From Escherichia phage Ec_Makalu_002, in the sequence record MN709127.1: a stretch of 64,000 nucleotides of DNA. One strand, written 5' to 3'. This document shows positions 20,544 to 21,275 of this stretch, in pieces. How positions within the stretch are numbered: position 1 is the first letter of the stretch; every line of letters begins with the position of its first letter. The position numbers and the translations under genes are program-made. Below the pieces are notes generated by a model, which saw nothing but the letters and a program-made list of their open reading frames with translations, searched no databases and had not been told where the DNA came from.

Positions 20544-21275
20544 CTAACCACGGGTATAGTGTTCCAGAACAACGGTCAGATGAATATATTCTAATAAATC
20601 TTTCCAAAAGTCAACATCTGGTTCTTCCGGCATACCGTTTTTCTTTGCCTCTTCACGCGCGAGTTTAACACGCTCGTAGAGATCTTTCAATTCTTCCCGC
20701 ACATTATCAAAGGTTCTTTCTCCTAACTTACACGCTAAAATAGAAGAACGTCGCGCGAGCGGGAATTGTAGATCACCTGTCTGATAGATTTCAAGTAGCT
20801 GATAACCAACACGCAGAGCATGAGAAAGATCTTTCCAGTTACTGAAATACTTTTCAGATTTGGCTACCTGTTTCTTGAGATAACCAGACAACCCCCACAT
20901 ACCAACATGATAGAATTTATCGCGATGTGTTCGGATGTATTCCCATTCTCTGGAGGATTCGATCAACATGTTACTAGGCGCGTGCACCATGTCAATAGCG
21001 CCGATATCGCCTTTACATGCCAGATTGATAAACCGTTTTAGACTGAACATATTAACGTCAATATCGTCTTTGGTGTTCTTAATACCCTGACCGCTAGTGC
21101 TTTGGTCATAGTGTTCTTTCATCGATCCTAAAATAATTTCTTTCGCAGTCGGAACAAAGATACCACGATAATCTTTATCGGAATTTTCAGTATCAAGGCC
21201 GTATAAGTGAGATCCGAAGACCATTTTAACCATTGTATGCATAATTAAAACCCTCAGTTGATTAAGAGATTGCAT
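20544..21275 (-). CDS. pol-beta-superfamily nucleotidyltransferase-like protein (probable true start MHTMVKM)
   Basis: N-terminal FGSHLYGLDTENSDKDYRGIF fits the GS...[DE]x[DE] NTase motif; helical C-terminal domain. Confidence 0.5.
   Translation of the reverse strand: MQSLNQLRVLIMHTMVKMVFGSHLYGLDTENSDKDYRGIFVPTAKEIILGSMKEHYDQSTSGQGIKNTKDDIDVNMFSLKRFINLACKGDIGAIDMVHAPSNMLIESSREWEYIRTHRDKFYHVGMWGLSGYLKKQVAKSEKYFSNWKDLSHALRVGYQLLEIYQTGDLQFPLARRSSILACKLGERTFDNVREELKDLYERVKLAREEAKKNGMPEEPDVDFWKDLLEYIHLTVVLEHYTRG

Follow-up and report, generated by a model that had tools for sequence, protein, structure and literature searches.

The minus-strand gene at positions 20,544 to 21,275 of the window (the whole 64,000-nucleotide stretch of Escherichia phage Ec_Makalu_002 that we analysed, record MN709127.1) is, by sequence comparison, the orthologue of nrdC.11 of phage T4. 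Its sequence assigns the product almost certainly to the RlaP family of Pol-beta nucleotidyltransferases, and by analogy with characterised family members it likely shares their addition of nucleotides to RNA 3'-OH ends. The gene is already known and is not novel as a kind, since it is a T4-family gene annotated as a nucleotidyltransferase and falls in a named Pfam family with published activity. What may be new is that the Krischvirus protein lacks an α/β insert of about 105 residues present in nearly all other NrdC.11-type proteins. The proximity of such genes to RNA-repair genes in 8 of 27 bacterial or MAG loci may also be new. The best explanation, reached by analogy and held with moderate confidence, is that NrdC.11 would add NMPs to RNA 3'-OH ends in tRNA or RNA repair together with PseT and RnlA, as an accessory counter-defence function.

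Identity and distribution of the gene

The window belongs to a Krischvirus (RB49-like) genome. Identity over the 4 kb around the open reading frame is 99.2% with Ec_Makalu_003 and 96-97% with RB49, Phi1 and GEC-3S. The RB49 counterpart is nrdC.11 (NP_891669.1), described in RefSeq as 'nucleotidyltransferase; similar to T4 tk.-11', and T4 nrdC.11 / tk.-11 itself (NP_049709.1, 336 aa) also carries a nucleotidyltransferase label. The window protein matches T4 NrdC.11 with a BLASTP E-value of 1e-50 and about 47% identity over the shared parts, with 106 gap positions. The statement of the earlier note that this was no recognisable T4 core gene thus needs correction, as T4 has a counterpart. The gene is accessory: in T4, it lies inside a deletable block, nrdC.11-mobD.3, and the mutant is viable on laboratory hosts (PMC9825161). 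The similarity of nrdC.11 orthologues to COG3541/nucleotidyltransferases had been noted already in 2006 (PMC1524935).

Homologues were found by tblastn in 1,613 phage records, mostly from T4-like phages of Escherichia, Klebsiella, Shigella, Aeromonas and Acinetobacter, with some from mycobacteriophages. An exhaustive search returned 3,575 clusters (50% identity, E ≤ 1e-3) homologous to NrdC.11. Within Krischvirus, 58 of 58 records have a copy that is at least 95% identical at the protein level. The codon differences from RB49 and GEC-3S (10 synonymous and 0-1 non-synonymous) argue strongly for purifying selection on nrdC.11, with dS>>dN. Annotations of the homologues are uneven. Many are wrongly called 'thioredoxin' in phage records and UniRef, apparently by propagated confusion with nrdC, and at least one bears the name 'putative HNH homing endonuclease'. 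In one Krischvirus record the name is 'putative 38.9 kDa protein', a mass that fits the T4 protein but not the shorter Krischvirus one.

Start codon and upstream signals

The program-made list of open reading frames gives 243 codons on the minus strand at 20544..21275. The N-terminus of its translation reads ...MVKMVFGSHLYGLDTENSDKDYRGIF and contains FGSHLYGLDTENSDKDYRGIF. The open reading frame is real and correctly placed on the minus strand, but as gene coordinates these positions, taken over in the earlier note, include 11 extra N-terminal codons. The ATG at 21242 (MHTMVKM..., 232 aa) is the most likely true start. We place it there because RB49 and GEC-3S are both annotated with a 699-nt CDS whose start matches this ATG, a Shine-Dalgarno sequence precedes it, and all homologues in the alignment start about nine residues ahead of the GS motif. 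The context of the ATG at 21275 points the same way: no Shine-Dalgarno sequence was found for it by reading the sequence, it overlaps a -10-like hexamer, and a terminator hairpin stands just before it. The features of the gene and its upstream region are as follows.

20544..21242, minus strand: most likely coding sequence of nrdC.11, an RlaP-family nucleotidyltransferase (232 aa plus stop; ORF list, Pfam RlaP, PHROG 388)
21243..21275, minus strand: eleven additional N-terminal codons in the mechanical ORF, MQSLNQLRVLI, unlikely to be translated (no Shine-Dalgarno sequence, -10 overlap, homologue starts)
21251..21255, minus strand: Shine-Dalgarno sequence GAGGG, 8 nt upstream of the 21242 ATG (read from the sequence)
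21274..21302, minus strand: possible weak sigma-70-type promoter, TTGGCT, 17 nt, TG-n-TACGAT (read by eye, three genomes compared)
21296..21320, minus strand: intrinsic-terminator-like hairpin in the vs.6/nrdC.11 gap, 10-bp stem and T-run (pattern scan)

A terminator is annotated in GEC-3S at the same place as the hairpin. At the -10 position, RB49 and GEC-3S have TATGAT where the window has TACGAT. The automatic promoter scan returned nothing directly upstream of nrdC.11, the element at 21274..21302 lying below its threshold. Read from its sequence, this element is a possible weak sigma-70-type promoter that overlaps the vs.6 terminator. Because of this overlap (21274-21320), transcription of nrdC.11 may come from read-through as well as from a start of its own.

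Family membership and conserved residues

The protein had been called a nucleotidyltransferase on the strength of the minimal signature GS-x(9-13)-[DE]x[DE]. The bare pattern is present in 5 of the 203 window ORFs of at least 60 aa, and we rejected it as evidence by itself. The call nevertheless holds, and the motif rises above chance in this protein because of four other results. Pfam RlaP (PF10127) matches with E=2.7e-14 and 53.9 bits, against a gathering score of 23, over profile positions 23-198 of 249. PHROG 388 'nucleotidyltransferase' matches with E=7e-80. A set of residues is invariant among homologues, and the profile-profile comparison of the NrdC.11 subfamily with canonical RlaPs gives an HHalign probability of 94% (E=1e-7). 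The window protein has all the elements of the Pol-beta signature, i.e. G-S, D-x-D and a third acidic residue, at the following places.

21171..21215, minus strand: signature G10-S11 ... D22-x-D24, GSHLYGLDTENSDKD, invariant in 40 homologues
21057..21059, minus strand: D62, candidate third catalytic carboxylate, in the NTKDDID motif on strand 61-67

The catalytic role of D62 is proposed by analogy with the topology of Pol-beta nucleotidyltransferases. Across 40 diverse homologues, the invariant residues are G10, S11, Y14, G15, D22, D24, N56, D60, D62 and D84, together with W136, K137, H141 and R144 in the C-terminal part. The acidic residues, on which the earlier call would stand or fall, are thus conserved. 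Several of these positions are shared with canonical RlaPs from bacterial repair operons. D62, K137 and R144 are also invariant in a 7-sequence alignment with them, the D-x-D aspartates align in every canonical RlaP that covers the region, and the profile-profile alignment pairs the G-S and D-x-D positions of the two groups. Canonical RlaPs have a glutamate aligned with D84.

We also searched for relatives outside the family. The window protein had no match in NCBIfam and no relative among PDB chains in sequence and profile searches, and PADLOC gave only a spurious CARF/HEPN match (E=0.036). Three other assignments were considered and rejected. For a CD-NTase, CBASS or HalB defence nucleotidyltransferase there is no profile match and no effector-like neighbour, and the likeness to HalB is at fold level only. 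A minimal MNT-HEPN nucleotidyltransferase was rejected because there is no NTP_transf_2 match and no adjoining HEPN gene, and R107-x4-H112 is not conserved. The ANT(4')/LinB family gave fold-level matches only (11-12% identity, TM 0.27-0.40), with no sequence or profile match.

Predicted structure

The AlphaFold2 model of the window protein (pLDDT 91.6, pTM 0.87) has strands at residues 2-9, 23-30, 44-48 and 61-67, with helices in between. GS follows strand 1, DxD opens strand 2 and D62 lies on the fourth strand. Helices then cover residues 116-230, the long C-terminal one being 210-230. The model is divided as follows.

20907..21242, minus strand: N-terminal Pol-beta nucleotidyltransferase domain, residues 1-112 (AlphaFold; HHalign to canonical RlaP 94%)
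20547..20906, minus strand: C-terminal helical (HEPN/KNT-C-like) domain, residues 113-232
20811-20837, minus strand: conserved W136-K137...H141...R144 helix, inside the C-terminal helical domain

Structure prediction thus yields a Pol-beta nucleotidyltransferase fold, not a fold of another kind, and bears out the helical domain that had been proposed to follow the motif. This two-domain layout matches the architecture reported for the crystal structure of PfRlaP, which has a nucleotidyltransferase domain, a helical domain and three conserved Asp (PMC12776372). In PfRlaP, the last helix packs back on the nucleotidyltransferase domain (PMC12776372).

An insert missing from the Krischvirus protein

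Nearly all NrdC.11-type proteins are 300-350 aa long, while the Krischvirus protein has 232 aa. The difference maps to one place.

20838..20858, minus strand: junction S129-EKYFS-N135, the site of the insert of about 105 aa, with α/β structure, in T4-type proteins (alignments; BLASTP gaps)

In the Krischvirus protein and in a short relative (P0002, described below), the roughly 105 residues are absent between '...GYLKKQVAKS' and 'NWKDLSHA...'. In the model of a T4-type protein (P0037, pLDDT 87), helices and five to seven strands of the insert make up an α/β module of their own. Compared with the canonical Pfam domain, the short form is collinear, while in the long form the RlaP profile is broken at the insert. 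The choice of substrate could depend on this module.

Full-length, single-stretch matches of 231-258 aa make up 4 of the best 150 representative clusters. A second short form of 234 aa (P0002), encoded on a syntenic contig, is 57% identical to the Krischvirus protein. In a neighbour-joining tree, built with no support values, the short forms take three separate positions within the long-form clade, and the Krischvirus pair has a 327-aa protein as its sister. In the alignment, the borders of the gap left by the insert also vary by lineage. Together, the three positions and the differing borders suggest at least three losses of the insert. Its repeated loss among NrdC.11-type proteins is a modest new point. 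The contig of the 57%-identical short form (L008) has, at 3951-4547, an HNH/NUMOD4 homing-endonuclease gene between its GrcA-like and RlaP genes; this is the position of the terminator-containing intergenic region of the window.

Gene neighbourhood in phages

Upstream of nrdC.11 lies vs.6, which encodes a GrcA-like glycyl-radical protein and is followed by the terminator. Downstream are three small paralogous ORFs and then regB.

21329-21745, minus strand: vs.6, GrcA/YfiD-like autonomous glycyl-radical cofactor (Pfam Gly_radical, E=1.6e-16)
19690-20025, 20086-20346 and 20328-20522, minus strand: three tandem small paralogues (phrog_6261 / phrog_15978)

None of these neighbours in the window (vs.6, the small ORFs and regB) is an RNA-repair gene, and the window holds no tRNA genes. 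Hence, the Krischvirus locus does not have an RNA-ligase or end-healing neighbourhood. In RB49, pseT (polynucleotide kinase/phosphatase) and rnlA (RNA ligase 1) are about 77 kb from nrdC.11, outside the window. RB49 also encodes a second small PNK-like protein, and no rnlB is annotated there. Krischvirus nrdC.11 lies about 0.8 kb upstream of regB in the direction of transcription, in place of T4 vs.3-vs.5. In T4, the gene stands between nrdC.10 and mobD, about 6 kb from regB, and the proximity to regB is therefore specific to Krischvirus. Two cluster-L temperate mycobacteriophages have no RNA ligase near the homologue, which is adjoined by an integrase, a repressor and an Lsr2-like gene. Thus, not all homologues are linked to RNA ligases.

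Some of the neighbours deserve a remark in their own right. The C-terminus of vs.6 is presumably almost identical to the E. coli GrcA sequence, and the protein may serve as a spare part for oxygen-damaged pyruvate formate-lyase in infection. Its annotations differ between 'hypothetical', 'GrcA' and 'pyruvate formate-lyase'. The small paralogues share I-T-x-(G/N)-x-(L/M)-Y ... C-x-H-L ... W and sit where T4 has vs.3-vs.5. Further along, RB49 57B (NC_005066.1 60725-61189; about 28400-28900 of the window by offset) carries the RefSeq label 'RNA ligase'. Since we take T4 57B to be the 2H-phosphoesterase Acb1 (anti-CBASS), the label is probably a LigT-fold misnomer and 57B no real ligase partner.

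Gene neighbourhood in bacteria

The linkage sample consisted of 27 bacterial or MAG loci encoding NrdC.11-type proteins (33-53% identity), whose neighbours we scanned. We counted Pnkp/Hen1, RtcB/RtcA, Rnl, PNK and a second canonical RlaP as RNA-repair genes. At eight of the 27 loci, such genes lie within about 6 kb of the NrdC.11-type gene, and in several cases they are directly adjacent.

L036: Hen1-Pnkp-NrdC.11-type protein-canonical RlaP-Rnl
L029: RtcB-RtcA-NrdC.11-type protein-canonical RlaP-Hen1
L034: Hen1, Pnkp, canonical RlaP and an RtcB-like ORF
L022: RtcB
L014: RtcB-like ORF
L020: T4-like PNK
L026 and L037: canonical RlaP in each

These neighbourhoods give independent support to the view that the NrdC.11-type branch works in RNA repair. 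The name RlaP reflects a tendency to such linkage, and many members of the Pfam family are unlinked. A modest new point is the tandem arrangement of NrdC.11-type and canonical RlaP genes in bacterial Pnkp/Hen1 and RtcB operons. Genes for a long NrdC.11-type nucleotidyltransferase and a canonical RlaP adjoin or lie close together at L026, L029, L034, L036 and L037. Since both paralogues are encoded side by side or close, the pairing suggests non-redundant roles (e.g. on different RNA ends or nucleotides) or a heteromer.

Two other kinds of neighbour recur. Three unrelated MAG contigs (L013 1614-3164, L014 7558-9081 and L018 7676-9226) encode, just downstream of the NrdC.11-type gene, a conserved UDG-superfamily protein of about 510 aa (Pfam scan in L014 only, E=1.8e-16). 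In L024 and L025, the nucleotidyltransferase gene is followed by one for a Cu-oxidase_4 (YfiH-like) protein.

Proposed role

The target of the protein had been described as unknown. For the RlaP family, part of the answer is now available: in a December 2025 preprint, the RlaPs of P. fluorescens and P. aeruginosa were found to add 1-2 NMP to RNA 3'-OH ends (PMC12776372). They use any NTP and also dATP, prefer Mn2+, and are inactive on DNA and protein, leaving E. coli proteins unlabelled (PMC12776372). They favour the 5' half of cleaved tRNA, but also label full-length tRNAs, rRNAs and single-stranded RNAs (PMC12776372). They partly restored the aminoacylation of a tRNA lacking one anticodon-loop nucleotide (PMC12776372). 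The role proposed for RlaPs is to replace, ahead of ligation, the nucleotides that 'smart' ribotoxins such as RloC take away, and a weakness of this model is that nucleotide choice is unspecific, leaving most repaired tRNAs with the wrong base (PMC12776372). The same study put T4 NrdC.11 in a separate sequence-similarity cluster of the family and called its function unknown (PMC12776372). A comparative-genomics survey of jumbo phages made the same repair prediction for phage RlaPs (PMC7824862). The name of the family derives from gene linkage to RNA ligases, according to Burroughs & Aravind 2016 as cited in these two papers (PMC12776372, PMC7824862).

In the mechanism that we propose, NrdC.11 would transfer one or two NMPs from NTPs to an RNA 3'-OH without a template. 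D22, D24 and D62 would coordinate two metal ions, probably Mn2+, with the RNA placed in the cleft that separates the nucleotidyltransferase domain from the helical domain, the latter bearing K137, H141 and R144. After cleavage of a tRNA, with removal of a nucleotide, by a host anticodon nuclease of the RloC type, NrdC.11 would put a nucleotide back on the tRNA 5' half; the phage enzymes PseT (end healing) and RnlA (sealing) could then regenerate full-length tRNA. T4 PseT/RnlA is the founding example of RNA repair as counter-defence. A more specific and tentative idea is that NrdC.11 might be the missing third enzyme of that pathway, restoring the wobble nucleotide excised by RloC-type nucleases. 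By analogy, a phage role in tRNA or RNA repair alongside PseT and RnlA is plausible, and family assignment and gene neighbourhoods favour repair among the options that the earlier note had listed. Several facts count against this reading: the characterised Pseudomonas enzymes are distant, the window protein being about 16-21% identical to the canonical RlaPs with which it was aligned, nrdC.11 is unlinked to RNA-repair genes (pseT and rnlA being about 77 kb off), and the module of about 105 aa found in nearly all NrdC.11-type proteins is absent. The mycobacteriophage homologues without a nearby RNA ligase, the unspecific nucleotide choice of the Pseudomonas enzymes and the viability of T4 lacking nrdC.11-mobD.3 also weigh against it.

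Alternative explanations

The same RNA 3'-end chemistry could serve a purpose other than repair, namely tagging or tailing RNA or blocking tRNA charging in host shut-off. MenT/AbiEii-type toxins extend tRNA 3' ends and so block charging. In a variant, mRNA fragments generated by RegB or another RNase would be tagged after dephosphorylation by PseT. The activity of RlaPs on full-length tRNAs, rRNAs and single-stranded RNAs besides tRNA halves (PMC12776372) speaks for such a function, as do the move of the Krischvirus gene to within about 0.8 kb upstream of regB and the lack of linkage to rnlA or pseT. However, there is no match in Pfam, PADLOC or NCBIfam to MenT/AbiEii or other toxin nucleotidyltransferases, and the proximity to regB is a peculiarity of Krischvirus, the two genes being about 6 kb apart in T4. 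Bacterial homologues of the subfamily are found in repair operons and not in degradation or toxin operons, and we regard this explanation as unlikely. A protein or small molecule as the substrate, such as a host defence protein or a metabolite, seems to us less likely again. There are precedents, as KNT/ANT(4') and LinB nucleotidylylate antibiotics and MNT antitoxins AMPylate HEPN toxins. Yet the protein resembles such enzymes only in fold (11-14% identity, TM about 0.4), the family profile matches no solved nucleotidyltransferase by sequence, and no HEPN partner gene adjoins. The sole R-x4-H stretch (R107...H112) is not conserved, H112 being replaced in other members, and the characterised RlaPs left E. 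coli proteins unlabelled (PMC12776372).

The protein would be of a different kind if it were an oligonucleotide or signal synthase like Hailong HalB or a CD-NTase, counterfeiting or replenishing a host immune signal, which we consider very improbable. Hailong HalB makes oligo-dA. A more explicit form of this idea, to which we give hardly any credence, has the insert-less NrdC.11 make or replenish the short DNA/oligo-dA 'guard' molecules that keep the Hailong channel HalA closed, and not act in repair; if the protein were HalB-like, a phage enzyme would be counterfeiting a host immune signal. The identity to HalB is 12%, however, the family profile does not detect HalB by sequence, and PADLOC gave no match to any defence nucleotidyltransferase. 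The activity of the family ends after 1-2 additions on an RNA primer (PMC12776372), and homologues are linked to RNA-repair genes rather than to channels or effectors. The rarity of the short form (4 of the best 150 representative clusters) would also fit a decaying remnant, in which loss of the insert of about 105 aa inactivated the enzyme and the ORF persists without function. We give this scarcely any weight because the codon differences (10 synonymous against 0-1 non-synonymous) point to strong purifying selection and all 58 Krischvirus records have a copy at least 95% identical. Moreover, a 57%-identical short form is kept with the same synteny in a more distant relative, the catalytic residues are all intact, the short form is collinear with the insert-less canonical Pfam domain, and the AlphaFold model is confident and compact.

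Returning to nucleotide addition in RNA repair, if NrdC.11 restores nucleotides removed by 'smart' anticodon nucleases such as RloC, this would account for how T4-like phages could evade a defence whose damage is not undone by ligation alone. The gene is conserved in more than 1,600 phage genomes, often under the wrong label 'thioredoxin'. The 232-aa Krischvirus form is the minimal natural phage enzyme, and hence a convenient protein for biochemistry.

Comparison with known systems

HalB (PDB 9dbh) and ANT(4') (PDB 1kny/6un8) resemble the window protein at the level of the fold only, with 11-14% identity. HalB oligomerises dATP and ANT(4') acts on aminoglycosides, and the biological contexts differ as well. 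Pseudomonas RlaP belongs to the same Pfam family and has the two-domain architecture predicted for the window protein, with three conserved acidic residues; the Krischvirus form is collinear with canonical RlaPs and has no insert. However, Pseudomonas RlaP falls in a different SSN cluster from T4 NrdC.11 (PMC12776372), and the window protein is 16-21% identical to the canonical RlaPs aligned. The Pseudomonas genes lie between rtcB and rtcA, whereas the Krischvirus gene is unlinked to any ligase. Activity on RNA 3'-OH ends has been measured only for the Pseudomonas enzymes. T4 NrdC.11 differs in its 336 aa, which include the α/β module of about 105 aa in the helical domain (about 131-240 in the numbering of the closely related Bp7 protein, which was modelled) that the Krischvirus form lacks. 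Its gene lies between nrdC.10 and mobD, whereas that of Krischvirus lies between vs.6 and the small ORFs close to regB. The two proteins nevertheless share the same invariant motifs and the same RefSeq label, and pseT and rnlA are encoded in RB49 as well as in T4, whose repair pathway is described in the literature.
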